Assembly (NCBI RefSeq): GCF_964204645.1
Contig: NC_134028.1
Location: forward strand, 17,677,653-17,741,652
Direction of reading: 5' to 3'
Source: Tubulanus polymorphus
Lineage: Eukaryota; Animalia; Nemertea
Length of the DNA stretch: 64,000 nt
In this document: in pieces, positions 20,782 to 61,289 of the stretch
Layout of the letters: every line of letters starts with the position of its first letter
How positions within the stretch are numbered: the stretch's first letter is position 1
Program-made: the position numbers and the translations under genes
Notes under the pieces: model-generated
What the model saw: only the letters and a program-made list of their open reading frames with translations
Told to the model about the DNA's origin: nothing
Databases searched by the model: none

Positions 20782-23700
20782 AAAATTACAATTCTCAGTA
20801 TGAAAATTTGTATTCCCGAGTATACTTACCTACAAAACATACTAGCCAGTAACCTTAGCTTGCTGGTATGACAGCCTGAAATTCAACTTGGCCTTCCACC
20901 ACCAGTTGGTGGCCTCACTGGATGCACGCTCATATAACTCTTGGGTAACAATTACCCCACGAGCGGGGTAAGTATACTCGGGAATACATATTTTCATACT
21001 AAAAATTGTCATATTCCCTTCATATACATTCCCTTTAAAACAAAATAGCCAGAGAGTACAAAAGACTAGGAGGAGGAACAGCCGAAGACAGACACACACC
21101 CACCAAACTATGCTCACCTTCTGAGCTGGAAGACAGCGACCCGAACGAGACCCTTTAAAGGTTAATGGAGTTACGCGGGTTGCACCCTCTCTGTTCTACA
21201 TGAGCAACAAGCCAACATCGCATACCCGAGAAAACAAAAATTACAAGGTAATTACAGTACATGTGCAAGTTTCCAACTTGTTCTGTTGTCCCGAACAGTA
21301 AATGAATGCAAACTAAGGTACACGATTCCCTGAATCCCAGGTAAATCCTATAAGTTAAAAAATCACTTATCTCCCAGACCCTGTAAAAAAGGGTCCGCTA
21401 GAATATGAGAGTCAACCGGTTTAGAAGGATGCCTAATCCCCTGAGTCATAACTACTGAACCAATGGCCGTTAACGATCCTAACTGGCCCGAAACGTCTCG
21501 GATATAGAATGACGAGAACGTGGAGGGAGAGCCCCAGAAAGCCGCTTTACAGATCTCATCAATAGAAGTGCCTGTGAAGGCGGACCAGGATGAAGCCAGG
21601 ATTCTGACCTGAGAAAGTACATTCTGGGACTCGGGGCTCCTTTATTCAAAGCCTCTATAATCCAGGTCACAATCCATCTTGCTACTGTATCCCTAGAGAT
21701 ATCTTTGACCAAATTCTCCTTAAGAGACAAAAATAACCTTTCTCTCCTCTTCCTAAAGGGTAAAGTGCACGCTAAATAAGCTTTGGTGCCCTGACTGGGC
21801 AGAGAGCACCATCTGGCCAGACATTCGAAACCAGGTAAGCTTAAGCCGGTATCTTCCATGACTTCCCTGCAGACGATGGTTTTTTGTTCTTGGCCAATTA
21901 AAAAGCCCAGGCCTGAAGGTGACCAAGTGATCGAGTGGACCAAAAAAACATGACCAGGGCTCACCAACAAGGTATGGAGCTCAGACCTCCGAGCTGCCAT
22001 AGCAAGTATTAAAGGAGAGCGGTCTTCCTGGTCAGTCTGGCCAAAGAAAGGACCTCTAACATCTCATAAGGATGCTCCATCAAGTATTTCAGAACTGCAG
22101 TCACATCCCAAGGAGGAATATCCCTTGACAACCGCAGCCGCTGAATCGAAAAACCTGCAATCAATAGGGCTATTCTAGGAGCATCTATAACAGATCGACA
22201 AAGGTGCCAACCCCCCAAAAAATGTTTAGGGAGCACAAACCAAAATTTTAAGTATTTTCGCGATTCCTGAATTTTCAAAATTTGTTGCATGTCCAAAAAT
22301 TAGAACCTGTATTTTCTAAGGAAAAAAAGGAAAAATGCCCACAAAAATCAGAAATCAAAATTATATCAAGTAGCAAATTTTAAAAGTGGCAAAACCTATA
22401 ATTTAAGTAAAATTAAATGTTTTTATTTAAACTAATACTGCAGTAATTGATTGTCATAATTGAATCATGTGGCTACACTGGCGTGCACACATATCAAAAA
22501 CTGAGACTTGATTTTGTCAAGAATGGATACACATGTTATACATAATTAACATCGTTGAATATAGTACTATAACCATGGAAATACTGCAGGACAGAATGAT
22601 TGTCACACATTTCATATCACTCTAGCTTTGATCACATTCTCTTTGTAATTGCAAAAATAACTCTTAACACAACACAACACAACAGAAAAATACCACATAA
22701 TCATATACTACTAGCTGAATACCCATCCAGTGGACGGCTTTCTCGTTGAGCCCACGTGTGTGTCGGTCGTGAGCACACCTCCTCAGTGCATAAATCCCGA
22801 ATCCTGAGGCTGATATTTTTTTGCTTATGAAATACATTCACTTTAATTGGCCGGGAAATGAATCTAAATGCTTCAAATGTTCAGGGTTCTTGGAACTTAC
22901 CCCACACATCCCCCACCCCGTCTGACCTGTCTGGTAAACAGTTAATTTTTCCCCAGCCGTTTTCAGGTCCCCCTCCCCCTTGATCGATCTTTGTACTTAT
23001 TTCATTGTCCGCACCACCCGTACGTTCATTTTGAAAGCCCCCGCCCTCCATCAACCAACGAATCGCATGATATTAAATTTGACCTACGATTAATTGAAAA
23101 ATGCCTAGATAGTCGCTAGAATTTAATGCGACAATGATATCAGGATTCTATATTTTGTATCACTGTTTGACATAATTATGATATCTCTGGTCTGTTAGGT
23201 ATATACGTACATTTTCTCGCCAAGAACCATTCTGAGAGGTTGGGTATGGTATGGGCCAGCAACACGGTCAGAACATTTGTATATCGCCAACCGATCCAAT
23301 CATATTAATTTTGATCCAAAGATTACGTAAATGAATGTCTTACCCAAAAAACCTGCAATCGCAACTGAAGTACAAATCAGTATGAGAGAACTATGTCATG
23401 TACTGTTATGATGCTGCTTTGTGTATCCTAAGTCGGTCAGTAAATTACTATAGTATTACTTCATGAGTATAATACGGTTACATAGGGTTCTGACCCAAGT
23501 GATACCCTAATTGTGAACCAAGTTTGAAAACAATCGGTCAACAATTGTGGCCTCTAGGCTGTTAACGTTGTTCTTCATGTGGGCCCCCTGGTGAAAATAA
23601 TTCGAATCGAATCAACCCAATTTCAAATAGGGTTCTGGCCGAAGTGATATCCTACTTGTGTACCAAGATTGAAATCAATCGGTCACTAATTGCAGCCTCT

Positions 23701-26319
23701 AGTCTGTTAACGTCGTTTTTCAAGTTGGTCCCCTGGTCGTTTTTAATGCCGGCCCTAGTGGCCAAAATCTGAATCGAATTGACCCAATTTTAAATAGGGT
23801 TCTGGCCCAAGTGATATCCTACTTGTGTACCAAGTTTGAAATGCATCGGTCACCAATTGGCACCACTAGGCTGTTAATGTCGTTTTTCATGTTGGCCCCT
23901 GGTGGCCATTATTTGAATCGAATCGATCCAATTTTATATAGGGTTCTGGCCTAGGTGATATCCTACTTGTGTACCAAGATTGAAATGAATCGGTCACCAA
24001 TTGCGGCCTCTAGGCTGTTAACATCGTTTTTCATATCAGCCCCCTGGTGGCCATAATGTGAATCGAATCGACCCAATTTTAAATAGGGAAGATGAAAATG
24101 ATGACTTATATGTGAAGTCAATGTATATGTTATCAATGTATATGTTATATGTAAAGTTATTTGTTTGTATAAAGTGTAACGGTAGTTGGTCGTTCTTTTG
24201 TTCGTTCGCTTGTCAGTATTCCAGTATTCTGTAGTATTGTGTTGTATTGTTGTTGTTGTCTGGTATTGTTATTTTCCCGCCTCAAAGTTTATTGGCATAT
24301 CCGTTTCCGGGTTACTCCCGCATTTTGTGTAATATTTTTGGCACTTGGTCGTTGGAGCTCCTCGGAGTATCAGTGCTTGTCTGTGTGCTTGCTATATTGG
24401 AATCTCCCTCAGTCGTCATGTAAGTTTTGTACAAGTTTATATAAATTAATTATTGTAACTGTTTAGAACATTTCCTACCCTTAATACCCTACCTGTAATA
24501 TTCGTCGTTTGTTTTTGTCGTCGTAATTTGAAAATAAACGCATCAATGAGAAGTATCGACTGACTTCGTTTGTCATTTGCAACAGTTCTGGCCAAGTGAT
24601 ATCCTACTTGTGTACCAAGTTTGAAATGAATTGGTCAACAATTCGAGCCTCTAGGCTGTTAACGTCACTTGCGGCGGTGGCATACTCGTTTTCCGAGGCA
24701 GGTACAGCTTTTACAGCTGTTACTCAGCTATCGATACTTGAAATGTTTTCCACCAAGGCGGAAAGCTGTTGTGTACAGGTAGCCATAAAGGATTTCAACT
24801 CGTCTGCACTGTGGTCATTGCGCCCCTGTGGAGGGGGAGTGGACCCGCGATTAAAGTACCACCTGTAATCTCTCGCCAGCCTAGGAGACGTGAGTCAGTT
24901 GAGGACTCTGGACGAGGTCGAGAGCATTATGGTTCTTAGAATGTACCCTATGGGCTTTCGTTGACTGGCTACTACTTGAACTCCCCGAAGAGGAATGCCT
25001 TTTCCTGGAGCTAGATGTCAAAACTCTAGCATTATGTAGCCTGCAACCGGCACGGGTACTTGCGCATGAAACCCACCGGGACCGGTACTCCCGTGACCGC
25101 GGATCCAAAAAACGTGAACGTGGATTCCGTGACTGCGTATCCAGTGAACCTGGATGACCCTGGATCCTGTGATCGTGGATCCAGTAACCGTGGGTCCCGT
25201 GACCGTGAAACTGTCCACCTTGTCCGGGACACAGTCCTTTGAACGTGCCCCCCAGAGGATGGCGGATGGCAAACAGGTTCCTAGGCATGAGCTCAGACCA
25301 GGTGCCTGGACAGGGCCGTTGGTTAGCGGTCACTTATGCCCGTGAAGCGGCTGGACAAGACCGTTCAGCTCGCTTCCACGAGGCTTCATTCCACACCGCG
25401 CAGTGAGGACACTTGAGGTGTCGACTGCAGGGCTGACCGCTGTCTGCCTTGCCGCAGACCTGATACGTACCGTGTGAGTCCCATAAACCGAATACACAGC
25501 CGCAGCCCTTGTTCAAACACCTCTTTTGCCCTTTGGGGGCTAGAGGTGAACTGGACATCCTCTAATAAAATGCAACAACTCAAAAGAGAGGGAAACGATT
25601 CTGAATATGATGCCTAAAATTAATTAATTTATCAACTGATTGAAAACGCAAGAGGGGCCGAACCGAGGGAACAACCCGATGCAATTAAACCTCTGAACTG
25701 CAAACGGTAGGTCTGCCTTGCTGCAGGCCTACTACATACCGTGTGCCTCATAAACCGAACACCCGGCCGCAGCCCTTGTTCAAACACCTCTTCTGCCCTT
25801 TGGGGGCTAGAGGTGAAATGGACATTCTCTAATAAAATGCAACATCTGAAAAGAGAGAGAAACGATTCCGAATCGCAGGCCTAAAATTAATTACTTGATC
25901 AACCGATTGAAAACGCGAACGGGGGCAAACCGAGGGAACAACCCGATGCAAAGAACATCTGAACCGGAAACAATTGAATTGAATTGAATAATGGAAAGGA
26001 ATCTTGGCAAGGAAAATCACACCGTAGTGGGACAACGCTGGGCCGATCCCTGCAATCCAAAGGTTATCCAACGTAGAACTTCCACTTCCTGATTCGTCGA
26101 AAACCACGTGCGGATGTGCCGTCTCAAACCGAGAAACACGTGATTAAACGGGCAACCAGTTCGACGACATAAACAATGCCAATGCACCAAGAATTATATG
26201 AGCGTGCTTCCGGTGGCACCACCAGCTGGTGGTAGTAGGCCAAGTTGCATTTCGGGGGTTATACCAGCAAGCTAAGGTTACTGGCTAGTATGTTTTGCAG
26301 GGAATGTATATAAAGAGAA
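20782..26319 (-). mobile_element. DIRS1-like tyrosine-recombinase retrotransposon relic (ITRs, ICR, gag and YR fragments; RT region lost)
   Basis: ITRs at 20830-20945 and 26187-26301. ICR at 20966-21033 is complementary to both termini. YR fragments (PPWDV..VL, AARRSELHTL) at 21479-22200. Cys-rich gag start at 25334-25558. Confidence 0.85.
23480..24670. repeat. Tandem ~145-170-bp satellite units (GGGTTCTGGCCCAAGTGATATCCTACTTGTGTACCAAG...), split by a ~500-bp LTR-like insert at 24089-24584
   Basis: Four units at 23484-24088 and a resumed unit from 24585. The insert has AATAAA and ends in ...GCAACA. Confidence 0.7.
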
Positions 26320-32811: not shown

Positions 32812-33239
32812 CTGCAAAAAATCAAATGACCAAAACACTTACTGAACACAATCTGGCCCAATATGATGTGTCTATTTCACAGAAATTCTTTGACTGTCAG
32901 TTTTGTGACAACTAAAACTAGGTGTCCAGGGACACCATACCCATTAGAGAAATGGTTCAAAGTGCCCAACAAACTATGGATCCAGGGACACCATGCCCAC
33001 TTGGAAGTGGTTTCAGATGCTCAACAATCTAACAATTTCAATATTCAACGCCCCCATCCAATGCCCTTGAAAAAATTCAATGACCTTGAAACTCACCACA
33101 ATTGTAGAACATGTCAGCAGCTACGATTTTGAAATTGATTGTGCTAACAAAATATGCCAAGTTACCACTATAATATGGAAATACTAAGTTATTCTACTAT
33201 ACAACGCCCCCTGGTCATAATGGTGCGGGATCTTATAAT

Positions 33240-36200
33240 AGTTGAATAGTTAACTATTCTACTATTCTACTATTCTACTCCCCTATTCTACTATCCTTAC
33301 ATTTCTTTTAGAATAGTTAACTGTTCTTCTATTCTACTATTCTACTCCCCTATTCTACTATCCTTACGTTTCTTTTAGAATAGTTAACTATTCTACTATT
33401 CTACTATTCTACTCCCCTATTCTACTATCCTTACATTTCTTTTAGAATAGTTAACTATTCTACTATTCTACTATTCTACTCCCCTATTCTACTATCCTTA
33501 CATTTCTTTTAGAATAGTTAACTATTCTTCTATTCTACTATTCTACTCCCCTATTCTACTATCCTTTCGTTTGTTGTAGAATAGTTAACTATTCTACTAT
33601 TCTACTATTCTACTCCCCTATTCTACTATCCTTTCGTTTGTTGTAGAATAGTTAACTATTCTTCTATTCTACTATTCTACTCCCCTATTCTACTATCCTT
33701 GCATTTCTTTTAGAATAGTTAACTATTCTTCTATTCTACTATTCTACTCCCCTATTCTACTATCCTTACGTTTCTTTTAGAATAGTTAACTATTCTACTA
33801 TTCTACTATTCTACTCCCCTATTCTACTATCCTTTCGTTTCTTTAGAATAGTTAACTATTCTACTATTCTACTATTCTACTCCCCTATTCTACTATCCTT
33901 ACATTTCTTTTAGAATAGTTAACTATTCTACTATTCTACTATCCTTTCGTTTGTTGTAGAATAGTTAACTATTCTACTATTCTACTATTCTACTCACTAT
34001 TCTACTATCCTTTCGTTTGTTGTAGAATAGTTAACTATTCTACTATTCTACTATTCTACTCCCCTATTCTACTATCCTTACATTTCCTTTAGAATAGTTA
34101 ACTATTCTACTATTCTACTATTCTACTCCCCTATTCTACTATCCTTACATTTCCTTTAGAATAGTTAACTATTCTACTATTCTACTATTCTACTATTCTA
34201 CTCCCCTATTCTACTATCCTTTCGTTTGTTGTAGAATAGTTAACTATTCTACTATTCTACTATTCTACTCACTATTCTACTATCCTTTCGTTTGTTGTAG
34301 AATAGTTAACTATTCTACTATTCTACTATCCTTTCGTTTGTTGTAGAATAGTTAACTATTCTACTATTCTACTATTCTACTCCCCTATTCTACTATCCTT
34401 ACATTTCTTTTAGAATAGTTAACTATTCTACTATTCTACTATCCTTTCGTTTGTTTTAGAATAGTTAACTAACTATTCAACTATTCTACTATTCTACTCA
34501 CTATTCTACTATCCTTTCGTTTGTTGTAGAATAGTTAACTATTCTACTATTCTACTATTCTACTCCCCTATTCTACTATCCTTTCGTTTGTTGTAGAATA
34601 GTGATCCACAGCTAGATTTTCGTAGTATTTGAAAATGTTCGTAGTATTTAGAAATGTTCTTAATGTTGTTTCCGTATGCGTGGGGGTTACGTTAAAGCCG
34701 TCAGACAAGAACGTACTAGTAGTAAGAATTACGAAAGTTCTTGTTTGATGCTTTCATCTACCAACGCAAACCATAAATCAGTCTATAAACAACAATTCTT
34801 TCTCGGTTCTTCTGCTGTGAGATCTGGCAAACATTCAGAAAATCTTTATATAAAACTTTTAAATAGTTGGAACCATATTTGGTTGGGTCGGAACAATGGA
34901 GTGTATTTATAATGAGGGTCGTGAAGGGATCACGCTGATACTTGATGATATTCCCGGCTACTTTCCGTAAAAGGAAAAACCGGAAGTTTAGGAAGATGTG
35001 GTTGTTTTGCTTATCCTGTATTAAAATAGAATTAGTTAAATTGTAGATAAAATAATTAGTATAAGTATTTCAAATAATTTAAGAATTGATAATCAATCAC
35101 AATGTATTCCGAATCATAGTTAATTATAATAATTAAAAAAGAAACAATGAATTTGTACTGTAATTAGAAAAGAAAACAAAGTTTTGAAAAGATATTTAAT
35201 TTGAGTAATCTAGATGTTGTTTAAGAACAAATTGTTAATAACCGCTAATGTTTTAGAAAAATTAATTTGTGTTAAATGTTAAAACTAGCTGTCTGAAGTT
35301 TCTGTTGTCTGTATGCGCTCGTTGGTAATTCACAGACAATAGCTGCTCTCTCAACAATGACTAGCAAGGAGTGAGTAAATCACAACGCGTCATGACAGGA
35401 GGGTTGGAAGGAAAAAGTTAGTTTAGCAAATCAGTTTTGAAAATAATTTTAGATCAGCGAATCATTAAGGCCAAATTCTATATGACCAAAACAGTCATGA
35501 CAGTAAGGTTGCTGCTCCTTGCCAAAAGTCGAGTGGGAGAGTCGGTATTTTAAGAATGCCGATTCTTTCTATAAAAGGGACCCGCATCTTGAGAGAGCTG
35601 TCAATCGGGAGAATCTGTACCTTAGTAAGACGAGTGTCGACAGCAGGACAGGAGAAGCTTCGGAACGATAGGGATTCATATACAATAGGGATTAGGAAAA
35701 TCATTCTTTGTTCAAGGTAAATAAAATATATTATCTTCAATATTATCATCCGGTATTTCAATTTATTCATTCGGATTTGTGCACGGACACGTTCTCTCGC
35801 CAGGGCCTTACTCAAGTATTTTATAGATAACGATTAAAGAGAGGATTGTGACCGGTGTATCAATAGTTAACTATTCTGCTATTTTACTATTCTACTCACT
35901 ATTCTACTATCCTTTCGTTTCTTTTAGAATAGTTAACTATTCTACTATTCTACTATTCTACTCCCCTATTCTACTATCCTTACATTTCTTTTAGAATAGT
36001 TAACCATTCTACTATTCTACTATTCTACTCCCCTATTCTACTATCCTTACATTTCTTTTAGAATAGTTAACTATTCTACTATTCTACTATTCTACTCCCC
36101 TATTCTACTATCCTTACATTTCTTTTAGAATAGTTAACTATTCTACTATTCTACCATTCTACTCCCCTATTCTACTATCCTTTCGTTTGTTGTAGAATAG

Positions 36201-36292
36201 TTAACTATTCTACTATTCTACTATTCTACTCACTATTCTACTATCCTTTCGTTTGTTGTAGAATAGTTAACTATTCTACTATTCTACTATCC
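33240..36292 (+). repeat. Left subterminal array of ~67-bp units (palindrome AGAATAGTTAACTATTCT plus TATTCTAC iterations), split by a solo LTR
   Basis: GAATAGTTAAC recurs at 33311, 33378, 33445 and onward. About 20 units precede the insert and about 6 follow it. Confidence 0.95.
34602..35862 (+). mobile_element. Solo LTR (1261 bp)
   Basis: Termini TGATCCAC...GTGTATCA (7/8 inverted match), 4-bp TSD ATAG (34598-34601 and 35863-35866), TATAAAA at 35570 and AATAAA at ~35720. Confidence 0.85.
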
Positions 36293-37050
36293 TAAGGTCT
36301 AAGGTTAAAAACAGTAAGGCTTAGAGGGTTAAGTGTTCAGAGGTTTAGGGGGTTAGGGTTTAGGGGGTTAGGGTTTAGGGGGTTAGGGTTTAGTCGGTTA
36401 GGGTTTAAAATAGTTAGGATTTAGAGGGTTAGGATTTAGAGGGTTAGGATTAAGAGGGTTAGGGTTTAGAGGGTTAGGGTTCAGAGGGTTAGGGTTCAGA
36501 GGGTTAGGTTTAGAGGGTAAGGGTTTAGAGGGTTAGGATTCAGAGGGTTAGGATTCAGAGGGTTAGGGTTCAGAGGGTTAGGTTTAGAGGGTTAGGGTTT
36601 ATCGGGATAGGGTTCAGAGGGTTAGGATTTAGAGGGTTAGGATTTAGAGGGTTAGGGTTTAGAGGGTTAGGGTTTAAAATAGTTAGGTTTAGAGGGTTAG
36701 GGTTTAGCGGGATAGGGTTTAGAGGGTTAGGGTTTAAAATAGTTAGGGTTTAGGGTTTAGGGGTTAGGGTTTAGGGGGGTTAGGTTTAGAGGGCCAAGGT
36801 TCAAAATAGTTAGGGTTTAGAGGGTTAAGTGTTCAGAGGTTTAGGGTGGTTAGGGTTTAGTCGGTTAGGGTTTAAAATAGTTAGGATTTAGAGTTTTAAG
36901 TTTTTAGAGGGTTAGGTTTAGAGGGTTAGGATATAGACAGTTAGGATTTAGAGGGATAGGGTTTAGAATAGTTAGGATTTAGAGGGTTAGGGTTTAGAGG
37001 GTTAGGTTTTAGACGGTTAGGGTTTAGACGGTTCGTGGGTTATAGGGTTG
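36293..37050 (+). repeat. Telomere-like G-rich tract (TTAGGG variants, ~15-bp TTAGAGGGTTAGGGT period)
   Basis: Dozens of GGGTTAGG units visible directly. Confidence 0.95.
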
Positions 37051-37881
37051 ATGGTATATTGATCATTTATATAAAATGTATTCAAAATTTCCTTGTCAAT
37101 CTATTTTGATAACACTCATTTCCGTTAAAACTATCCGTATATTTTGTATATTGTCAGCTAAGAATCACTGGACTCTACTGCGTGGTCACGTTTATAAAAT
37201 AAATATCTGCATTTGTGAACATGTTTTCACTTCGAAAGTTACATTCAGACTAGTACTACGTTCAAAATAAATGGCTAATTGGATATATCCGATGGGCCAA
37301 GTAACGTCCATATGATGTAAAAATAAAAATACACGTAAATCATTTCGACTTCAAACCAATATTTCAATTACTTGATGTACACTTGCGATGAGGTGCATGT
37401 AGTTGAAATTGTGGCAATTTTTTGTAGTTGCGCTCTACAAAACCGGTAATGTGTGTCGTTCTAGCGGGATAGGGTTCAGAAATTATTCTAGACCGAATAG
37501 CTTGATAAATAAACAGTGCTGCACTTGCTGTTTCATTTGCACAATAAACTGTTTAACCAATGCTATTTTTACAGAAAAACATACCAACGGACTGACATAA
37601 TAGTGACGATTAAATCAAAATAACAACTTATGAATGACAAATTAACCACTGAAATGTTAAGGAAACATTTATCCGTTCTCAAAAATTTAGCCAGAATAAC
37701 GAATTGCACGTTGATTATTAAAGCGATATCGACTGTATTTCGTTGCTAAGTGTTCTCATGTTATTTAAATTTTTGTTGCTAAGTATTTTTCTCTAAAAAT
37801 CAAAATCGTTATATGTTCAGACGACATTCTACAGCTAACGACTATCACTGCAGTCACATATATTAACAGCCTCACATCACA

Positions 37882-40800
37882 ATGATTAACGTAGCAGCAA
37901 AAATTAAAGCAGCTCAAGCTGTAATCTTTCCACGAATATCCGATATTGTCTGCCAAACAGCAGAAGAATTGGTGAAATCTCATGCAGATGCAGTCGGTTG
38001 CCCAAATGAATTTTTTATGATTCCACTCCTTAGTATCACTGCAGGTAAATTCTATCTTTTTATTAATTCCTAGGCCTACAGACACAGTATAGTCTATCAC
38101 CTAACATAATCAATCATAAAAATTGGTATTGAAACTTATCAGTTAGGCCTATGATAATTACCCGCTGTTACATTATTAGAATAAAGCGTAGACATCGATC
38201 GCAAACCAAAACGCCATCTATCTGAATCAAGGCAATGAAATGTAAACCACCACGTTTGAACGCGTAACACACCTAAATCTTAAGTAGCGCCTGGTTGCTA
38301 TCAATTCCTGTCCAACGAGACGGATTCTTCCTTTACAATGAATTGAGGCCCACTTTACTCTAAATTCACATTCCTTTTTCGTTTCTACAATGGATTTTAG
38401 GTGGCTAACCTCCGACATATACACATGTTATTTAAAGTTTAATAAAATACGTTGAACATCTATTTCTACATCGGCCCCCACCATGATTTTTGTTAAAATA
38501 TGCGGAATACAATTACTTACCTCTTTATCTAATAAAGGTCTTGTAGGTGTAAATGGTATTATTAAAATACATCAGGAGTGGGAAGAGCCATTTATATTAT
38601 GGACTATCGTTTCTGCACGAAAAGGAGAGAGAAAATCTCCAGCACTTAAACGGTTGATAAAACCCCTTCAAGACATCCAAGATGAATTGATTAAAAGATG
38701 GACGTCGAAAGATGAAACCCCTAATAAGAAATGTGGAAATACAGATCAACCTCCACAATTGCTAATAGATTTGTTTAGCATGGAAGAACTGCATGGTGTT
38801 CTTAAAAGAAATAATGGTCAGGTATGTTTATGTTTTAATCATATTTTCAGTTAAGTGGAAATTTCTGGGCAAATTACGAATACATACGTGAATCAGGATA
38901 GTAATAAACCTTACTTCTCTTCACTTATATAAATTTATATGTGCTTGTTTTTTTATAACCGTTCTTTTTTAAATTCTAAAATAAAATTTTATAGGCCTGT
39001 ATCATGATAGTTAGTGCGAGAAACAATTGGTGATATAAAACAATTTCATAGTGACCTGCAGGGGATGCTGCAGGGCCGAGAAACTAATGAAAAATACCTC
39101 CGTAGGCCTGGTTAGCCTATTTATTTCATTATTTTCCGAAAATTATAGAATAGGTATTAATAGTCTCAGTTAGCGCCAAGAGGTTACTAGGCAACTATCT
39201 ACCTATGACACAGACGTCAATGTCTGTTGCATTCGAATTTCAAGATGGCTTATCGAGTGAACGTGGTTGATATTGTGAGACTTTTGAAAGCGCATATTTT
39301 ATTTCCGATAGAACAGCCACTGAGGTGGAAATATATCTCTAGATTTGTATCTTTGAGAGACTGCGCATGCGCTAACTATCGATCGCGATCGTCCTGAGCT
39401 CCGACAAAAACCAAATTTTCCGTATTACGATGGCCTCGAACTTCCAGGATCAGCATTGTATTATCGAAAAAGGGTCAATACCCATACGATCTCATAGGAA
39501 AAAGTCGCAACCGACAAGATTTAATGACTATATAACCTCCGATAAGCAATATACTCAGGTTTGTTTACAAGCCGTTGGCATGGAAACCGTCACTTCCGCC
39601 GGTGGAACGCCTACCGTTGGCAATGAATTAACGATGAACGATAGTAACATTAGCTTATCGTCGTATTAACAACCTGTCACTGATACGCAAGGTAACGATT
39701 ACATTTCAATCAATCTGAACACAGGCCTAAGAGACTCTATGGATCCATATTTACCTCAACATCCAGCGTCAATGCCATTTTCCGGCATATACCGCAATGA
39801 GAAGCAGCACTTGGTAGCAGACGATACATTAGCCATACCCATAGACAGCTTGATGCCGCATCGTATAGGGATGGCTCCGACAAATTCACCTGACACAGGT
39901 CCAGGATTACGCAATCCTCCTACCATAACAGATAATCTAAACAACGATGATTTGTCCACTTCATACTATTATGCCTATAGAGATCTCCCACCCGTTTCAT
40001 CACCAAACTCCCCTATCTCTCCAAACCCGTGTAATACTAATACATCTCAGTGTTATATCTGTACAGATACGATAGACCCTAATAAAGCAATGTTGTGTAA
40101 CCGGTGTGATAACCTTATTTGTTTAACTTGCTCTGAAACGACTATTAATGACCGTAAATATGCTATGGACAAAGGTTTCCTCTGGTTCTGCCCAAAATGT
40201 CACAAACCAGCTCTAAATGTCACCAAATCCGATTTCAAAGTTGAAAAGCAATGCGAAACGTATTTATTGTCTATGAAAAAACGATTGGAGACCATTGAAT
40301 GCAATTTAAAGGCTCATAACGAGAGATTCGAAAACTTAGAGGGTGCCATAGCTAAAAGAACCACCGTAGATGATGTCCAAAAAAAAATCCAATCCACGCT
40401 CGAATTAAATCCAAGCCAGTACATACTTCCTGAAAAAGAAGTTGTTGCATCTCTAGTTGATCAAAAACTTGAAGACCACAAAAAAGAGATCAGATCTCTA
40501 ATTTGGGATCAAGAAGAAAGGCGCAACCGTGAATTAAATTTAATTATTCACAACCTGCCCGAATCTACTCACGAAAACCGTATAAATAATCTCATGGATG
40601 ACCTGAACAATCTAAAATATATCATTGTGAAGTTTCTGAGCATACCCATACCTGAAGGATCCATCAAAGACGCTTTTAGGCTAGGTAAGATGCAGATCGG
40701 AAAACCGCGTCCCCTTAAAGTAGTTTTTAGTGGTAAAAAACTTAGGCGGGAGATCCTCATCCACTCGATTAAATTTAGGGATATAGTTCCCGACCCCACA

Positions 40801-43800
40801 GACAGTGAGTCATTAACAGCGAGTAAGCTCTATGTTAACCGAGATCTCACGCCTATGGAACAAAACGAACTCAGAGCACTTCGGAATGAATTGAAACGCA
40901 GATCGGACAACGGCGAGAAAAATCTACGTATTTACAGGGGAAAAATCATTGAGTCATCAAACTTGCTCAGAAAGCGAACTGATGACCATCAGCCCTTTCT
41001 CGCAAGCGGGAGGCCATAACCCTCCCGTTTCATACTATGCTGCCACACTCACTACTGATAAAACTGTGGCAAAACCCTTAACTACATTTTTCGCGAATAT
41101 TGAGTGTGCCTTAAATAAAAAAGAGGAGTTAATGGCCAGAACAACAATAATGGACCCAGATATAATAGGGCTGTGCGAAGTTTTTCCAAAAAATGGGTAG
41201 ACTTTTAATATAGATGCATTAGTACCATCAGATTACCTAGCCATAGAACCTCCTGCTAACGGCCCCCTCGGCGTCGCTCTGTTCATTAAGAGTTACTTGA
41301 ACCCCTTGCAAATTGTTCCAGCCAGTTCAACGCCCCTTCATGAATCAGTGTGGTGTGAACTCGACATTCCCGGCTCCAACAACAAACTGCTATGTGGATG
41401 TATATACCACAGCCCGTCGAGCTCCCCACAGAACAATCACCAATTAATTGAAGAACTGTCTATCATGTCGTCGTTAAAGTATGATAACTTTCTAGTCGTG
41501 GGAGACTTCAATTTGCGCAATATAAATTGGAGAACGTTATCAGCCCCTGACTGGGCCATCACGAACAATATAGAACAGCACGTTCAGGAACCGACACGCT
41601 TCAGAGGGTCAAACATCCCTAGTCTCCTGGACCTCGTTCTCACAAAAATCAAACCCCAAATAATCTCAACAGATATAAGACCACCCCACGGTAAAAGCGA
41701 CCATTATGTAATTGTAAATAAACTTTGTTGCTATGACTCGACCAACGAACCCTTGGAACTGTCACAGAAACCTGCTTTCAGGAGAGGGAACTATGACCAA
41801 ATCAAAAAAAACCTTCAATCCATACCCTGGGATGTCATACTAAACAAGAAAGATATACAGGAATCATGGAACGCCTTCGAGATTATCCTGCAGGCTCAAA
41901 TTGACACCAACATCCCGCTCATTCAAAATAAAGTCAATACAGGAAAAAAAGGGCTAAGTGGTTAACCAAAGAATGTGGTAACCCAATAAACAAAAAACAC
42001 AAACTATGGAAGCGATATTTACACTCTCGCAACCTGGAAGCCTATACTAGGGCAAGAAACAAGGCAACAACTAACTGTAGGAAGGCTAAAAGAAATTTGC
42101 TAGCAAAGGAAATAAAATCAGATCCCAAATCCTTTTGGAATTACGTGAGGTATAGGACATCGAAACATGACAGTATTGCGAAGCTGGAACAGGGTGATGG
42201 AAAACCCCTAGTGTCCACGGACCTTGAAAAGGCAACTGTTCTGAATAATTCCTTGGCCTCGGTCTTTAGTGTGGAAAATCTAATAGATATGCCAATACTC
42301 GATAGAGACCCAATTACTAATGTGCTCTCTGACGTGATTATCTCACATGACAAAGTAAAGAATCTCCTCTCCGATTTGGACATATCCAAAGCTGCCGGAC
42401 CAGACGGACTACACACGCTCTTCTTGTCAAAGCTAAAAGATGAACTTGCCTATCCCCTATGTCTAATTTTCCAAAAATCTATTAGGGAAATGGAACTCCC
42501 CACCCAGTGGAAACAGGCGAATGTTTGCCCCATATTCAAAAAAGGTCAACAGCACAAACCAGCAAATTACCGTCCTATATCGCTTACTTCGATTGTCAGT
42601 AAGCTGCTTGAAAAAATCATAAGAGGATCAATCACGACCCACCTTGAAATGAACAAGCTCCTATCTGAGTCTCAAGCAGGTTTTAGAGTAAAACGATCGT
42701 GCCAAACACAGCTCTTGGAGGCAATTAATGATTGGACGGAGCTCATTGACCGTGGAATCGACGTCGACGTGGCATACTTCGACTTCTCCAAAGCGTTTGA
42801 CCGGGTTCCCCATGAAAGACTTCTACACAAGATCGCATCATACCAAATAAGTGGCAACATTCTTGGCTGGATAAGATCTTTTCTTAGCAATCGTAAACAG
42901 AGGGTTATTATCAATGGTTCATCGTCGGACTGGGCAACTGTCACCAGTGGTGTACCCCAAGGAAGTGTTCTCGGCCCTACCCTATTTCTAATATATATTA
43001 ACGACTTGTCTGACAGCTTATGTTCCGACATGCTAATGTTCGCTGACGATTTAAGATTGTATAGAGGAATCCAGAACTATGATGACTACGATATATTACA
43101 GGATGACATTAGCAAGACAACCAAATGGTCAGAGACTTGGCTCATGCCTTTCAACAATTCAAAGTGCAAAACCTTACACCTTTGTAGCAAAAACATTAAA
43201 CGCCAATACTATTTAACTACCCATTCTGGAAACCTCCCCTTGTTACAGGTAACATCTGAGAAGGACCTTGGTGTTGTAATAGACGAAAAATTAAACTTCG
43301 ACATTCACATTCAAAACTGCGTAAATAAAGCCAGGTCTATGACGGGACTTGTCAAAAGAACATTTACTTTCATTAACATCACCAGTTTCATGCATTTGTA
43401 CAAATCACTAATTAGACCCCACGTTGAATATGCTTCAGTCGTTTGGAACCCTGCAACTATTAAAAACATCAAAATGTTAGAATCTGTACAAAGAAAAGCT
43501 ACTAAAATGGTCCCTGAACTAAATGACTTGTCATACTGTGAGCGCCTTAAAAGCCTATTCCTACCCACTCTGGAATTCAGAAGATTACGTTACGCAATGA
43601 TTCAGATGTATAAGCTAATCCATGACGAAAGTCGAACTAAGAAACCGTTATTCAAACTCAACAATAATCGCTATAACACCCGCGGACATCCCCTCAAATT
43701 AACTAAACCTCACTGCAATAGACTTAACATCAGGATTAACTCGTTCACAATTAGATATATTGATGAGTGGAACAGGCTGCCCGCAAGTATTGTACTTTCA

Positions 43801-46800
43801 TCCGACAGTAACTGTTTCAAAAGAGAACTTAGCCCGCTCTGGGAAAACCATCCCCTCAAATATGAGCCATCATACGGAAACTAGGATTTCGATATCCGAT
43901 ACGCGTGTAAATAGTGCTGATCAGTATGGACTGTAACATTTTATATTATCGCGAGTGTTCATTAACCTGTATACGTTTTTCTTTTTTTATTCTACTATAT
44001 GTGCAGTCTCATGTTAAACGTTCATAGTACGGATCTTATACGAACATATTTGTTCTCGCGCGATCCAGGACTAAAGTTGGAGATTAAAGTTGGAGATTTG
44101 TATCATCTCCACTGATTTCAAGACCAGAAAATGTATGTACAATAATAAGAAGCAGTTTAACAGCAAAATGCAAACTTATTGATTTCGATGCTCGTTGCGA
44201 AAAACACTGCCGCGGATTATATACGGTAATATCAGAAGAATACGCCGAATTATTATTACTTGAAGAAGATATGCAATTTGAATTCCTGTCGTCACTAAAT
44301 GCCGGCGCTAGGGACGGTTTCAAGAAAGTCATCTTAATGCCATGTTTTACACATTGCCATACATGTAAAAAGAAAATCACGATACGCATTGTCCCGTCAT
44401 TCCCAATCGTTTATACGAAAAATGGTTGTGAAGTAGGAGCAATGTACACTGGAGAATGTAAAAATGCCGAGTGTGAGAACAAAGCTGTTTTTTGCCACAA
44501 TTACTTCACTACTGAAATTGAAGGAAAGAACATACGTTATTACACTAAGAATGTCGACAATTACTTCGCCTCATCATCGAAAACGGTATTCACAATTGAT
44601 CTACTTGACAATATTTCGACTCAGATAAATCATCATGGTGCATCTTTCATGGCTATTGCAAATGCATATAACGATGAACACGATGAATCAAATGGTTTAT
44701 TGAAAAATTCGACTTATTTCGGACGGAAGAATGGTCGTGATATTTGGCATCTTAATGAATTACGCATAGAAGAGGCTTGGTTTTTATATCGTATAACACG
44801 GTTAATTCAATACCCAGTCGGGCTAACATTTAAATACACCGATGGAAATCATGTAGATTTAGAATGTGTATGCGATGAAGCACTAACGGTATGTTTATCA
44901 TTTATTATCTCTTCCATAAGACCTCTTTAATTATCAATCACTTTACCTCGATTATAGGTTTTAATCTACGCATTTATCATTATTTTAGACATTTCAAGAT
45001 ATAAATACAAGGTGGCTCAAACACAAATGCTCAAGACCAGGTTGCAGGCAAGGTTACGTTATGTTAGACGGTAATGAAAAACTTAGACGAACTATATGCG
45101 CTGCACCTAAAACCGTGATACAAAGTGATGACATACGTATGGTTGAATTTTGTCATAATGATCCACAATATGGTGGAATGCACAAGAAATCGTCCAAGTA
45201 AGTCGAGTTTACTGAGTAAGCCATATACATGTAGTATCCAGGGAAACACTAACCGTATCAAACCATTTTAATATTTACGAAATATTTCGATTCGACTACC
45301 TACATAATTGTGGGAATTTGGAATGGAATATTACTAATTATATAAATGCTGTAGTCACTATAATATCTACTTTTTAACTATGTTCTGTGTAACTTTTAAA
45401 TGTTTAAATACAATCTTTACCTACAGATTTTGTATTGAACACAGAACGTACCATACCAGTAAAGGTAACTCCAGTACAACTGATAGAAACGTCGACGAAA
45501 AAGCAATCAGATTACGACGTATACCTCCGTATTTAAAAGGTAGATGTATTAAGAAAATTCTAGTCCTTTACTAAAATGTATTACAATGATCCTAAACATA
45601 AGCATTCTTTCTTTTTTTTCAGATTATGTATTCAATGAACAAGCTATGAAACAAATTTTAGACGTAGCTGATGCAGTGCAAGGCTGTAAGGATGTAAAGA
45701 ACAACGTTAATAAATTCTATGCTACCACATCTGGAGTGCTAGCGATCATCAAACCATGTGGCATTGTAGTAAGGATGTGTGAAATGTATTCGGCTGAGAG
45801 TATTACGCAGGCATTTCTGTTTTTATACGACACATACATTTCCAGCGGTTGTGAGCAGTATCTTCGCTATGTCGGCTACGATCGTGCATGCGAATTACAC
45901 CCTTTCCTTGAGAGATTATCGAATAATGGATCCGAGAAAGCAGAAGCAGTGTTGAAAAACAGAAAATACCTGGTTGACATTTTTCATGTCGAAAAACACA
46001 CGAAGAAATGCTGCATGCCTTTGACGGACAACCCACAATGTAGATATCATCCGAAACTCGATTGTTTCGCAGAAATTCATGAAAGCAATACAGAGTCGTG
46101 CGAACAAGGTTTCAGGCGTCTGAATAGATACAAATTCAGCACACGTAACATGACAAAGAGCAAGAGGAAATTGTATTTTGAGATTGTAAACCATGACTTC
46201 AACTGCTATTTAGAAAAACGATTATTTTTGGAATGAATAAAATCATACATTTACATTGTTCGTTTAATAATCAAATACTGTATTGTATTGAAATGTGTTG
46301 CAAATTTCAAATGGTTTGTTAAATATATTCTTGATATTAATAAAATGTGTTTTTACCAGTACTCTCAACTCTCAGTATTATCTTGTCTTATTTTGAATTG
46401 GAATAGGCCCTATGTACGTATATATGTAGACTTATTTGTCTCAGACAAGGGCAGTTTCAACCAATGGTCTTGTTGCCTGAAATTTCTAAGGTGCCGCAAG
46501 TTGTTTACATATTTTTTTTAAATGCGATTTGAAAAAGAGGATTTGATCAAAATTTGACGTAGCAAGCTAACGTTAGAGGTTCAAATCAATGATTTTCTAC
46601 TGAGTAATTATGGTTCATAAACTTTCAGATATCATTTTTTTGTTTAAACTATAGGCTATCGGAATATACGAAGAACTGAAAGTGTTGCTCGAGTCATTAG
46701 ACATTTATAAAAGTGGATCGTCGATAGACCGAAAACAATTTCTAAATTTGAATGGGGGATCATCCTGGTCAAGAAATTACCGTTGCACCGGGTTTCAACA

Positions 46801-48088
46801 TATTCCTAAAACTGCGTTGAATCACACTGGTTGTATGCAGCCGAACTTACTTTGTGCAATGCTATCGAAAGATGACTACGACGGATTCAACGACAGGTAA
46901 GACATAAATTTCGTTGCGGAACCCTCGTCCACAGTTGTATATTGTGATATAGACGAACATATAGTTTCATATATATTCAATTACATTACAGATATTTGTT
47001 AAGTTGCCCTAAAGAGTGTTTTTATACGTCAGACGACTACAGAATTCCAATGCCAGACAAATTTAAAAATTACATGAAAGATTACATGTCAGTTGTAATG
47101 GCGTTACACGTAAAAACCGTAACATATACGTTCGACGAGTCGGCAAAGCAGGAATTCAATCGTTTTCACGATAATTATTATTTAGTCAAAAGGAACGAAT
47201 ATTTGGATGATGATGATCGCCGAGGCGTTGTATCAAAAGCGCTTGGGTACTGTGCTCGGCTAGCCGGAATATTGAAATGCATGAAAATATCTATGGCACT
47301 GGTGGATGGTGTGTATGAAATTTTAATTTCATTTTAAAGGAATTTTTACGCTCATTTTAACCTCATTATGCACTGTTTTCAGATGGTACGGTTTTTGATC
47401 ACACTCCTGACGTTGTAATCACAGATAACGATGTAAAACAAGCAATACTGCTTATCAAATACAATGTCGATACAAAGTTCGCATTACTTCCGGATTTCCG
47501 AAATCCGAGTGCTGGTGAGTAGGTGACTGCTATGTTCTATCATGTACTGCATTAATTTTACCCTAGTACAAACAAAATACATTCTGCTATTGTGTATAAA
47601 ATGTATTCTTTTATTTCAGTTACAGAACGAAATCCGTGCAAATTCGACGCTGATGTCAAATTCAAAAAGATACTAGAGTACACACGGGAAAATGAAACAC
47701 TCGCAACCGCTACTGCTTGCAAATACAGTTTATTTCCAAGCATTCCAAAGGAAAATCGCCGAGACGCCAAGACATCTCATTCTAAATGGGCAGCTGAATG
47801 TGTATTCCAAGAGGTAAGGAGATTATCATATTCTTCCATATTTGTTATAAGTATTAATTTCGTATATTTATCACGGTAAAATTATAGATATGCTTGTATA
47901 ACGATAATGACTATTTATGACAGTTACAAGAAAAAGGATTCGGGGATAGCGAAATTCAAGTACATAAAATCAACAAGACAAAATCTTTGGTATTCAAAAA
48001 AAGACCGTTCGCTGAACTAACATCTGAAACCAAGGACACGCTTAAAAGATTGAAGATATCTGAAGCAAGATACCGGAATGGACGCTAA
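37882..48088 (+). CDS. DUF3987/YfjI-like P-loop ATPase (putative helicase), 7 exons, 498 aa, intact
   Basis: Exons 37882-38044, 38538-38821, 46655-46896, 46992-47308, 47383-47514, 47620-47813, 47924-48088. All GT-AG with matching phases, 1497 nt, no internal stop. Walker-A-like ARKGERKS, Walker-B-like AIGIYEE, plus GCMQP and DGFNDRYL. The start codon is tentative. Confidence 0.85.
39430..41019 (+). pseudogene. LINE ORF1 with PHD finger, coiled coil and RRM-like region (one in-frame stop at 39667)
   Basis: CYIC...CNRCDNLICLTC...WFCPKC, ERRNRELNLIIHNLPE, RLGK...PRPLKV, LYVNRDLT. ORFs 39430 and 39739 share a frame. Confidence 0.85.
40949..43884 (+). pseudogene. LINE ORF2, AP-endonuclease plus reverse transcriptase (stop at 41198, frameshift near 41945)
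   Basis: DIIGLCE, VVGDFN, LDLV, SDH (endonuclease); YRPISLTS, DFSKAFD, GVPQGSVLGP, FADD, DLGV (RT). Confidence 0.95.
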
Positions 48089-48469
48089 ATTGGTTAGCAT
48101 TCGCTATCATTTTAAAGTTTTTTCCAACTACTGAATGATAAGAAAAAAACATTTAACAGCGATAAGAAGATTCATACAAATTGAATATCTACGTAAGATA
48201 TCATCTGACTCTCTTTTTTGATTTTATCTTTTCAGAAGCTGATGTGTAACCGAAATTCACACAATCAACAAAAATACGAAATATGAAATCGTAAACTGTA
48301 AAACGACTTCAAATGCTCTTTGGGAAAAAATTTGTTATTAACTGTATTGTTATTAAGGAATTACAAATATATTCTGAATATTAATCCAACGTGTTTATAA
48401 TCATATTTGAATAGTATAATGTTTATAATCATCATAGAATAACAAAATAGAACAAATAAGCATTTTGAA

Positions 48470-50120
48470 ATCCTACTATTTTGACTATCCTTTCGAATAG
48501 TAGAATAGTAACTATTCTATTACGATCGTACTCGCTCGATTGTACCGATCATTAGAATAGCGATGGTCATAATGAGAAAAATCATTGAATAGTAAAATAG
48601 TTAAGTATAAGGTTTAGAGGGTTAAGTGTTTAGAGGGTTAAGTTTAGAGGGTTAGGTGTTTAGAGGGTTGGGATTTAGAGGGTTAGGGTTTAGAGGATTA
48701 AGTGTTTAGAGGGTTAGGTTTAAAGGGTTAAGTGTTTTAAGGGTTAGGATTCAAAATATTTACGGTTAAGAGGGTTAGGTTTCAAAATAGTTAGGGTTTA
48801 GAGGGTTAGGGTTAGAATAGTAGAATAGTAACTATTCTATTAATTATTCAATTAATCTTTTATATTAATATATTATTTAATATTAATTATATTATAGATT
48901 AATTATATATAATAGAATAGCGATGGTCATAAAGAGAAAAATTGTAGAATAGTAAAATAGTTAAGCATTTTCAAGTCCAACTATTTTTACTATCCTTTAG
49001 AATAGTAGAATAGAAGAATAATAGAATAGTAACTATTCTATTACGATCGTAACGATCGTAATAGAATAGTTTATATTCTACTATTCTAACGAACGTAACG
49101 ATCGTTAGAATAGCGACGGTCATAATGAGAAAATTCATAAAAAGTAAAATAGTTAAATCCTACTATTTTGACTATCCTTTAGAATAGTAGAATAGTAACT
49201 ATTCTATTACGATCGTACTCGATCGTAACGATCGTTAGAATAGCGATGGTCATATTGAGAAAAATCGTAGAATAGTAGAATAGTAAAATCCTACTATTTT
49301 GACTATCCTTTAGAATAGTAGAATAGTGACTATTCTATTACGATCGTACTCGATTGTAACGATCGTTAGAATAGCGATGGTCATAATGAGAAAAAGCGTA
49401 GAATAGTAGAATAGTTAAATCCTACTATTTTTACTATCCTTTAGAATAGTAGAATAGTAGAATAGTAACTATTCTATTACGATCATACTCGATCGTAACG
49501 ATCGTTAGAATAGCGATGGTCATAATGAGAAAAATCGTAGAATAGTAGAATAGGAAAATCCTACTATTTTTACTATCCTTTAGAATAGTAGAATAGCAGA
49601 ATAGTGACTATTCTATTACGATCGTACTCGATCGTAACGATCGTTAGAATAGCGATGGTCATAATGAGAAAAATCATAGAATAGTAGAATAGTAAAATCC
49701 TACTATTTTTACTATCCTTTAGAATAGTAGAATAGTAACTATTCTATTACGATCGTACTCGATCGTAACGATCGTTAGAATAGCGATGGTCATAATGAGA
49801 AAGATGGTAGAATAGTAGAATAGTAAAATCCTACTATTTTTACTATCCTTTAGAATAGTAGAATAGTAGAATAGTGACTATTCTATTACGATCGTACTCA
49901 ATCGTAACGATCGTTAGAATAGCGATGGTCATAATGAGAAAAATCGTAGAATAGTAGAATAGTTAAATCCTACTATTTTTACTATCCTTTAGAATAGTAG
50001 AATAGTAGAAAAAAGTTTTGGATAGTGATAGAATAGTGACTCTTTCCGATCGTATATGATTTACATAGAAATGCATTGTAGAATAGTTTGAATAGTTATC
50101 TGCGCACTATTCTACTATTA
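48470..50120 (-). repeat. Right subterminal array of 131/139-bp units with GTAGAATA iterations and ACGATCGT palindromes
   Basis: GCGATGGTC recurs at spacings of 131 or 139 bp, differing by one 8-mer. The 8-mer is mostly inverted relative to the left array. Confidence 0.93.
48605..48815 (+). repeat. Second telomere-like G-rich tract
   Basis: TTTAGAGGGTTAGGG variants on the same strand as 36293-37050. Confidence 0.9.
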
Positions 50121-52310
50121 TTAGATCCCGCACCAATCTCCCCCTGGTGACCATATGCAAAGCCCAATGACTTTGAAACTAACCATAATCATAGAACATG
50201 TCATGAGCTACAACTTTTCAATTGCTCATGGTAACAAGATATGCCGAGGTGCCAAAATAATAAGGGAATACTTATGTTATTGTATTGTTCAACGACCCCT
50301 GGTGGCCATATACAAAAACCAATGACCTTGAATCTCACCACAATTATAGACCATGTCTGGAGCTAGAACTTTCCAATTGATTGTAGTAACAAAATATGCA
50401 TAGGTACGAATATAATATGGAAATACTAAGTTTTTGAATTGTTCAACACCCCATGGTGGCCATTGAGAAAACCTATGACCTAGAAACTCACCACAATCAT
50501 AGAACATATCAGCAGCTACGATTTTCTAATTGATTGCGGTAACAACTTATGCAAGCTATTCTAGTTATTCAATCCCCTTGGTGACCATATGCAAAGCCCA
50601 ATGACCTCGAAACTCACTCAATTCATAGAACATGTTATGAGCTACAACTTTGCAATTGAACATGGTAACAAAATATGTCTAGGAATCAATATAATAAGGA
50701 AATACTAAGCTTTTTTACTTTTCAACGCCCCCTGGTGACTATATGGAATAACTAGTGACCTTTAAACTCACCACAATCATTGGAAATATCATGAGTGACA
50801 ACTTTTCAATTGATTGTGGTAACACAATATTCATAGGTATAAATATAATATAGAAAATATTATGTTATTGCATTGTTCAATGTCCCCTGGTGGCCATAAA
50901 CAAAAACTAATGACCTTGAAACTCACCACAATCATAGAACACGTTCTGAGTTACAATTTTTCAATTGATTGTGGTGACAAAATATGCTTAGGTATCAATA
51001 TAATGCGGAAATACTTTATTTCATCTATGAATGAGTACTGATGACACCAAGATGGCCGCCAATTGCATCATAATTGGCTGATCATAAATACCTGTCTCAG
51101 GTATAAAAGATCTCTTTTCAAAGAATACCAATCACAAATAGCAATGGAAAAGGCAAACCATTAGGAAGTTGCAAGACTCAGAATTCACGCCAAAATTGAC
51201 ATTTTGGGCACAAAAAGGTCACAGGATGGCCATCTTGAGTCTGATCGACCTAATTTTTCTCATGCTGATGAGCCCTTGGGTATACAAATATGTCTAAAAG
51301 ATCAAGGTAATTGATAAAAGCGTCCTCAAAATTTCCCTCGAAAACATCAAAAATATGTAAGACGTGCTGAATTTGGCAAACAACAATGGCTGCCAGTCAG
51401 CCATCTTGAATCTGAGAGGGCCAGTTTTTAGGCTGAAGATGTGTCTAGGGTAGATACATGTATAAACCAAATATCAAGACATTACCTTGAAGTGTCTTCA
51501 AAACTTCCCAAAATAACTGGACTCCGTCTACAGACGGATGAAAAGTGAACACAATAGTTCACTGGGACTAAAGTCCCAAGTGGGTTAAAAAGGAACAAGT
51601 CCCACCTCACCGGGCAGGCTGGGTAAATGTAGTTAATCATATCAATTACAATTATAACAAATTGAACACCACTTTTGCTGAAATGTAATTTAGAATTCAA
51701 AAATGTCATAATTTGAGAGTTATGCTTGTTTTCTGGGCTTATTTTCTCAAAGATACGCTTTTCACTAGTAATTCCTTTGGAGGTTTACGTTTGATGATCT
51801 ATCCTACCATTCCAGTTTCAAACTGAACATCACCAAATACCTCTTAAAGGCAGATGAGTAACAGCCACAGCAAAAACTTCATAGAGAAGCTGAAAAGTGT
51901 TTGTCCAACTTATTCAAACTTTATTGAAAATATTTTCAAAAGTATTGCAATATAAATATCGACTTTCAATGAAAAACTTTGGTGGAGTATCGATTTCAAA
52001 GCCATTCCGAAGAAAGTGGTGTTTACTGTAGTATAGACGAATAGAAACCACTGATAGGGATTGTACATATCATTTAACATCCACATGACGAAACCTGAAA
52101 AAACAAAAAATGGACCGATTTAGTTTCTGCCTAATCAAAACACAAATAAAATGTATTCATTACACTGTTGGGGCTTGATAAATTAGGATATCAAAGGCTG
52201 GCCATGAACAACCTCATGATCCAGTTACTGTTTTCTGCATAAATATCTAGAGTGAAGAGTAAGAAAAATTGACTGACGCTCCCACCAAGCCAAGCCATGC
52301 AAATCTATGC

Positions 52311-60751: not shown

Positions 60752-61289
60752 CTGTGTTCAACGAAATCATCATAAATAATAAGCAGTTCAATCATTATTG
60801 ATACTAGTTAGTGAATCATTAATTATGTAAACCCCGGGAATCAGTTCAGATCAATGTGACTGAAAATGAATAAATAGGGGTTTGTGAAAAATTATTTTAA
60901 GAACAACAAACACAAAGTGTCTGGAATAAACTAGACTAATGCTTAAAATAGACCCCCACCCAAAACACTCTCCCCTGGAAGCCATTATCATTCATATCAT
61001 AAAAGTTTTGATGTATCATTCCACTGGCTACTTATATGCAACACATACTAATAAAGAAATCCGAAATCGACTCTTTTTCCTGTACCCAGCACACTTGGAG
61101 GCCAAATGAAAAATCGCATGACCTTGCAAATTTGCTTATCATTCCATGGGCAGCATTTGTCTTTACTCTTACATCAAATTTCATGGATATTCATCAGATA
61201 TTGCAGGACAATATAGTGCTAACAAGAAATTAACGATGGCTGCCCTGACGGCAAAATTTGATGATAACAACCCTTATTGTGACCATATA

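Follow-up and report, generated by a model that had tools for sequence, protein, structure and literature searches.

How does a transposase gene come to lie within an intron of another gene, and do the two belong to one mobile element? We address this for a locus of the nemertean Tubulanus polymorphus within a window (the whole stretch of DNA analyzed) of 64,000 nt (NC_134028.1:17,677,653-17,741,652), in whose positions all coordinates are given. Here, a gene for a predicted MCM-like ATPase with a DUF3987 domain holds a KDZ-type transposase gene in its second intron. We favor, with moderate confidence, the explanation that both are parts of a single KDZ-type cut-and-paste transposon, in which the transposase probably moved ancestrally into a pre-existing intron of the element's own ATPase gene and likely stayed a separately started gene.

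The DUF3987 ATPase gene can be read as seven exons, all joined by GT-AG introns, at 37882-48088 on the + strand, with an open frame of 498 amino acids (aa):

37882-38044, + strand: ATPase coding exon 1; ATG at 37882, donor in phase 1; profile independent E value (iE) 1.9e-09
38538-38821, + strand: ATPase exon 2; Walker A-like ARKGERKS, donor in phase 0; DUF3987 E value 1.2e-09
38822-46654, + strand: ATPase intron 2; 7,833 bp, or 3,080 bp without an inserted long interspersed nuclear element (LINE)
46655-46896, + strand: ATPase exon 3; Walker B-like IGIYEEL; profile iE 5.1e-27
46992-47308, 47383-47514, 47620-47813 and 47924-48088, + strand: ATPase exons 4 to 7; ending at TAA

Exons 2 and 4 match Pfam PF13148 (DUF3987), exon 2 with 38.3 bits, and a profile made from related loci only matches six of the seven exons at iE ≤1e-3 and exon 6 at 0.019. 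The original prediction, drawn from the letters of this DNA, placed the end of exon 2 at 38821 and the restart of the frame at 46655, both in phase 0; the donor CAG/GTATGT and the acceptor TAG/GCT bear this out. The junction of exons 2 and 3 can be aligned without an indel to all nine related-locus open reading frames (ORFs) in the alignment, which are intronless there, and the intron 2 borders are thus well predicted from sequence. Because ARKGERKS lies in exon 2 and IGIYEEL in exon 3, intron 2 separates, as had been proposed, the motifs that we take to be Walker A-like and Walker B-like.

The same-strand CxC5-KDZ gene inside intron 2 begins 423 bp after exon 2 and ends 418 bp before exon 3:

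39245-39351, + strand: transposase exon 1, 5' piece; own ATG at 39245, preceded by AAG, in frame with ATPase exon 2
39352-44093, + strand: LINE inside transposase exon 1, which we presume to be CR1-like; PHD-finger ORF1, endonuclease and reverse transcriptase; 13-bp 3' repeat
44105-44888, + strand: transposase exon 1, 3' piece; CxC5, donor in phase 0
44989-45197, + strand: transposase exon 2; DGNEK; acceptor in frame with ATPase exon 2
45427-45539, + strand: transposase exon 3; placed from splice sites and frame only, with no profile match
45623-46236, + strand: transposase exon 4; KDZ core with YDRAC, DIFHVEKH and NTESCEQ; ends at TGA; KDZ E value 3.7e-11
46236-46241, + strand: AATAAA overlapping the transposase stop; a second AATAAA stands at 46339

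The KDZ domain (PF18758) scores 43.6 bits against a cutoff of 26.6. CxC5 reaches 25.5 bits (E value 1.6e-05), under its Pfam cutoff of 26.9; it is supported by the relative L003, which passes that cutoff with 41.6 bits, and by the atlas, whose top matches are CxC5 at 0.97. Fourteen homologues align to exon 4 at 40-58% identity. The ATG, the three GT-AG introns, the stop at 46236 and its AATAAA are all present as first described. An AATAAA within 30 nt of the transposase stop has a chance of about 3.5%, which is modestly nonrandom, and the ATPase pre-mRNA has 15 such hexamers, six of them within the LINE. At 45149, the window has T (codon 351, TTT, second base) and both a run X1 contig and five of five run X5 reads have G; the T may be an error or another allele.

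The transposase had been called whole, a description that fails at the LINE, which breaks exon 1 so that only 50 aa can be read from 39245 before a stop. Once the LINE and one copy of its target duplication are taken out, 608 aa are open, and this LINE-free transposase aligns to relatives across the insertion point in one tblastn segment from aa 20. As judged from its frame, the present copy is unable to make a full transposase from 39245. The duplication, AGATTTGTATC, stands at 39341-39351 and 44094-44104 and is 6-11 bp long, a range that reflects its overlap with the 3' repeat. The LINE and one duplicate account for 4,753 of the 7,833 bp of intron 2; as the LINE is a later addition, the native intron measures 3,080 bp. 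Its own endonuclease-reverse transcriptase frame is damaged, with a stop near 41200 and a frameshift near 41950. The LINE belongs to a multicopy family, and additional diverged contigs and reads pile up on it. Splicing out of the LINE (donor 39325, acceptor before 44096) was considered and rejected: only 6 of 17 positions at the acceptor are pyrimidines, and a W conserved in relatives would be removed. No reads skipping the LINE are listed in run X5, a weak negative (bins outside the LINE have a depth of about 3-8).

Neither a terminal inverted repeat (TIR) nor a target site duplication (TSD) of its own had been noticed around the transposase, and the two spacers agree. The longest inverted match between them is 8 nt, a length reached or exceeded in 298 of 300 shuffles; they share 10 direct 8-mers against 7.9 in shuffles, which is no excess; and none of four element-end motifs is present in them. 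No second piece of the ATPase or the transposase gene occurs among the 2,083 ORFs of the window. The ends of an element are found farther out, where both genes are enclosed in one KDZ-type DNA transposon of 16.9 kb, two later insertions included:

33208-33215, no strand: left TSD, CCCCTGGT; 8 bp, with a matching 9th base
33216-50140, no strand: whole KDZ-type transposon; bounded by the TSD and by an inverted repeat from 5 nt inside each end
33221-33250, + strand: left subterminal inverted repeat (TGGTGCGGGATCT...)
33244-37049, no strand: left subterminal arrays; 67-bp units, then 15-bp TTAGGG-like units
34602-35862, no strand: TG...CA insertion inside the left array; 1,261 bp, with ATAG duplicated (4 bp)
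48608-50010, no strand: right subterminal arrays; 15/16-bp TTAGGG-like units, then 131/139-bp units
50106-50135, - strand: right subterminal inverted repeat
50141-50148, no strand: right TSD, CCCCTGGT; 8 bp

The 8-bp TSD is read from one copy only and may also be read as 9 bp; the element ends are CA..TC. Because one TSD brackets both genes, the element would have transposed in its nested form. In run X1, the non-LINE parts are spanned by two long contigs at a flat depth of 43.5-43.8, and no second close copy is evident in the run contigs, contig depth not being copy number. Among the matches listed from eight sequencing runs, of which X6-X8 gave none, no joint spans 38821-46655 or any other modeled intron, a result that speaks neither for nor against splicing. 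Contigs of runs X1-X3 continue through the introns and thus read as DNA; run X4 has two 151-nt exact pieces in the 3' part of the ATPase gene, one of them running through intron 4, and these are uninformative.

Some features of the element and its site stand beside this. The TTAGGG-like 15/16-bp arrays (36342-37049 and 48608-48821) are telomere-like and have the same orientation in both arms, not an inverted one. We infer that the segment at 34602-35862 is solo-LTR-like (LTR, long terminal repeat); its two longest ORFs have no Pfam match, and it matches nothing elsewhere in the window or in the related loci. The segment at 37492-37612, upstream of the ATPase ATG, shows loose ends and a joint in runs X1 and X4, which suggests a small dispersed repeat. 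The insertion site lies in a host repeat family of ~155 bp (33062-33215 and 50141-51015), at a CCCCCTGGT word, and the TSD word CCCCTGGT is present once per unit of this flanking repeat. Related units occur at 61268-61561, and the CCCCCTGGT word is also found in a ~145-bp family at 23440-24048; a target preference for this word is possible.

If the outer element is one unit, are its two genes native partners? A transposase profile retrieved 29 related loci from metagenome contigs; scans of viral contigs and of genome contigs gave none. ATPase sequence is present in 13 of the 29, always on the opposite strand and upstream of the transposase, and the remaining 16 are mostly short or partial contigs. 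The 13 comprise 10 mostly intronless head-to-head loci from about six lineages (L001-L007, L013, L018 and L026) and 3 internal-deletion derivatives of head-to-head elements (L008, L016 and L021), in which the 3' halves of the two genes abut back to back and both 5' ends are missing. The transposase of relatives is a separate gene that starts at the matching N-terminus, and no ATPase-transposase fusion was found with the KDZ profile among 151 ATPase homologues. None of the four element-end motifs was found in the related loci.

The window is similarly distant from the same ten loci in both genes (identities of 36-43% and 34-42%). Trees of the two genes (11 rows each, the ten loci and the window) share their main groupings, and in each the window stands alone on a long branch (0.80 and 0.91). 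On this sequence evidence, the pairing of KDZ transposase and DUF3987 ATPase is native. An unrelated KDZ element could instead have inserted long ago into the ATPase intron of a different element and lost its ends; Kyakuja-type KDZ elements can lack TIRs, according to passages of PMC12730594, and the absence of TIRs alone is thus weak evidence. Such an origin is very improbable and already largely disfavored: the two families are paired in related loci, both genes show similar identities to the same loci, and the outer element has no other transposase.

Two oddities among the related loci concern individual contigs. L013 has a minus-strand piece of the transposase C-terminus (287-415) downstream of the ATPase, and the contig runs out at the matching position of its plus-strand transposase, truncating that gene; this is a misassembly or a rearranged copy. 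L018 (1510-2152) and L020 (1940-2961) contain introns or insertions at positions not shared with the window, which suggests independent intron gains.

Whether intron 2 is older than the present copy was judged from 61 homologues whose alignments reach the end of exon 2. In the five best exon-2 homologues (105-110 bits versus at most 92 for the others; 50-54% identical) and in P0219, similarity ends exactly at Q/V, which is how a phase-0 GT donor would read in translation. This group consists of six ORFs in five clusters (P0015 and P0216-P0220), and the P0015 match also begins at the start of exon 2. A V leading into unrelated sequence is not as clear in any of the other 55, most of which run on into a Walker B-like strand. 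The shared break indicates that an intron-bearing subfamily exists and that intron 2 predates the present copy rather than having been made by insertion into it.

What the ATPase may contribute is hinted at by the predicted fold of a homologue. Its homologue in L003 matches PF13148 at 111.6 bits and is modeled with a predicted local distance difference test score (pLDDT) of 93.7. All 40 rows listed by Foldseek for this model are MCM helicase chains, with a best E value of 2.9e-05 and 7-12% identity; the template modeling (TM) score over the query is modest (0.29-0.40) and refers to the L003 homologue, not to the window protein. This fold match agrees with a prediction, made in a passage of PMC5862659, that DUF3987 domains are helicases. 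A PDB sequence search with the ATPase profile gave no significant match (best E value 1.5).

We propose the following course of events. A head-to-head ancestor would have gained introns; the transposase unit would then have been inverted and relocated into ATPase intron 2, likely in an ancestor of the window lineage, and the nested element would have transposed as one piece. The ATPase mRNA would splice from 38821 to 46655 across the whole transposase unit, and transcription of the transposase would begin within the 423-bp spacer and finish close to one of two AATAAA hexamers (46236 or 46339). The element ends would be cleaved by the transposase, with the ATPase as a ring-shaped DNA motor that aids excision, target capture or repair. 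In the present copy, the later LINE insertion would have disabled the transposase in cis. The compactness of both spacers favors this account, and its simplest form is that the transposase remains its own gene, as in relatives.

Several points weigh against it. Whether homologous elements keep the nesting was a check named in the original prediction, and where they can be read they do not: none of the 13 loci with both genes is nested, and a same-strand ATPase part is absent from all 12 loci that extend 600 bp or more downstream from the transposase match. This count covers relatives that are 34-43% identical and without intron 2, more distant than the intron-bearing ones. Nesting is thus not family-wide, and only one copy speaks for the nested form being heritable. 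The claim that the nesting is native therefore survives in part: the transposase is not a separate inserted element, as the missing inner ends, the single gene of each kind, the pairing in relatives and the matching trees indicate, but the layout itself recurs in none of the readable relatives. The direction of change, from head-to-head to nested, is presumed, and a wider quick tree of 33 rows places the window transposase, unsurely, between two ATPase-bearing groups. What the Q/V relatives are seen to share is the donor position; searches of viral and genome contigs for their loci gave no match. No poly(A) hexamer lies within about 500 bp after the ATPase stop, and no poly(A) hexamer is kept at the transposase stop among 26 stop contexts of relatives, the nearest offset being 28 nt. 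The role predicted for the ATPase is extrapolated from the fold and from PMC5862659. At 46667-46675, the Walker B-like motif reads YEE in the window versus YDE or FDE in close relatives, a variant that may reduce ATPase activity.

The same layout data could be explained if the nesting were a one-off scar of the present copy or its immediate parent, for example a copy-into-copy insertion followed by loss of the inner ends and redundant genes, and never a working design. Every readable relative is head-to-head, rearrangement is common in the family (as the internally deleted L008, L016 and L021 show), the present copy carries two further insertions, and the sequencing runs show no second close copy. 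A scar would be less expected to leave both reading frames (the LINE aside), nine canonical introns, both ends and the TSD intact, with no trace of inner arrays or of a second gene and with spacers that are short and alike in length. We consider this origin unlikely.

Alternatively, the nested form may be heritable and served by one promoter, with ATPase exons 1 and 2 spliced either to exon 3 or into the transposase, and with intronic polyadenylation making the products mutually exclusive, as in En/Spm or in CSB-PGBD3. Two in-frame routes lead out of ATPase exon 2: one to the AAG preceding the transposase ATG, which in a LINE-free copy would yield a 757-aa fusion, and one to the acceptor at 44989, which would give a 460-aa fusion that bypasses the LINE and retains DGNEK, YDRAC and NTESCEQ; the AATAAA at the transposase stop and the two precedents fit as well. 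However, the second fusion would be without CxC5, and the acceptor before 39245 ends in AAG, where the nine modeled introns end in CAG, TAG or (once) AAG. The prior for each in-frame coincidence is presumably about one in three, and higher for phase 0; such coincidences are common and thus weak evidence for a shared promoter. The transposase of relatives, moreover, is a separate gene with a matching start. We regard expression from one promoter as doubtful. Its bolder form is likewise improbable: an intron-rich animal KDZ-helicase subfamily would keep the transposase stably in intron 2 and make both products from one promoter by alternative splicing of exon 2, an independent animal reinvention of the En/Spm design.

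Even with the separately started transposase that we favor, the ATPase mRNA must splice over three transposase acceptors and several AATAAA hexamers, which makes competition with intronic cleavage plausible; its use as a regulatory control is a proposal only. The likeness to maize En/Spm, which had been offered as an established analogy, is loose. There, too, the transposase coding sequence lies inside an intron of the element's second gene, and passages of PMC2613891 describe the tnpD mRNA as combining the intron-1 ORF with tnpA exons by alternative splicing. That transposase, however, is of the CACTA type, its second protein is DNA binding, and the sharing of tnpA exons by tnpD is demonstrated, whereas here there are in-frame routes only, ATG, stop and three introns all belong to the transposase itself, and relatives have it as a separate gene. 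The window ends are not CACTA, and Pfam gives KDZ only, with no Tnp2-type transposase. The in-frame layout may resemble the CSB-PGBD3 exon trap as much as En/Spm: in passages of PMC2268245, a same-strand transposase lies in an intron of an ATPase gene, with an in-frame AG before its ATG and a poly(A) signal beyond the stop codon. The gene that holds it there is cellular, and the guest is a piggyBac element with its own TIRs and a TTAA duplication; the gene that holds the transposase here belongs to the element itself, and inner ends are absent.

Among described KDZ transposons, the element shares the KDZ domain, a CxC5-like cluster, an 8-bp TSD, a multi-exon transposase, a length above 10 kb, an accessory gene and nested insertions of other transposable elements, judging from portions of PMC12730594, PMC12477816 and PMC9297572. 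It differs in that its accessory gene encodes a DUF3987 MCM-like ATPase rather than TET/JBP, and in that its transposase is 608 aa long versus about 1300-1400 aa and lies inside an accessory gene intron. According to parts of PMC12730594, Zisupton and Dileera have 8-bp TSDs and Kyakuja has a 7-bp TSD, CA..TG ends and no TIR. The window element has an 8-bp TSD, as do the Zisupton and Dileera types, and shares with the Zisupton type an inverted repeat at its ends, here subterminal and starting 5 nt inside each; its TSD length, CA..TC ends and inverted repeat do not match Kyakuja. Brown algae have giant KDZ elements that carry accessory genes and nested insertions, according to passages of PMC12477816. 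The closest parallels are the head-to-head KDZ and DUF3987 elements, which have the same two proteins (34-43% identical over aligned residues) and matching trees; these are divergent and mostly intronless, whereas the window genes are co-oriented, nested and interrupted by nine introns. In the literature covered, which excludes subscription journals and Repbase, we found no description of a KDZ element with a DUF3987/MCM-like ATPase or of the nesting. The word ATPase is absent from the main text of PMC12730594, whose supplements with element sequences could bear on catalogued ATPase-carrying KDZ families.

The KDZ-DUF3987 pairing suggests a cut-and-paste element equipped with a predicted ring motor. 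The pair has outlasted a change of layout, from head-to-head and intronless to nested and intron rich, which is an argument for a joint need of both genes. Should the nesting be a one-off, only this pairing would keep its interest; if it is heritable and spliced, the element would offer a testable case of transposase output tied to its partner by RNA processing.

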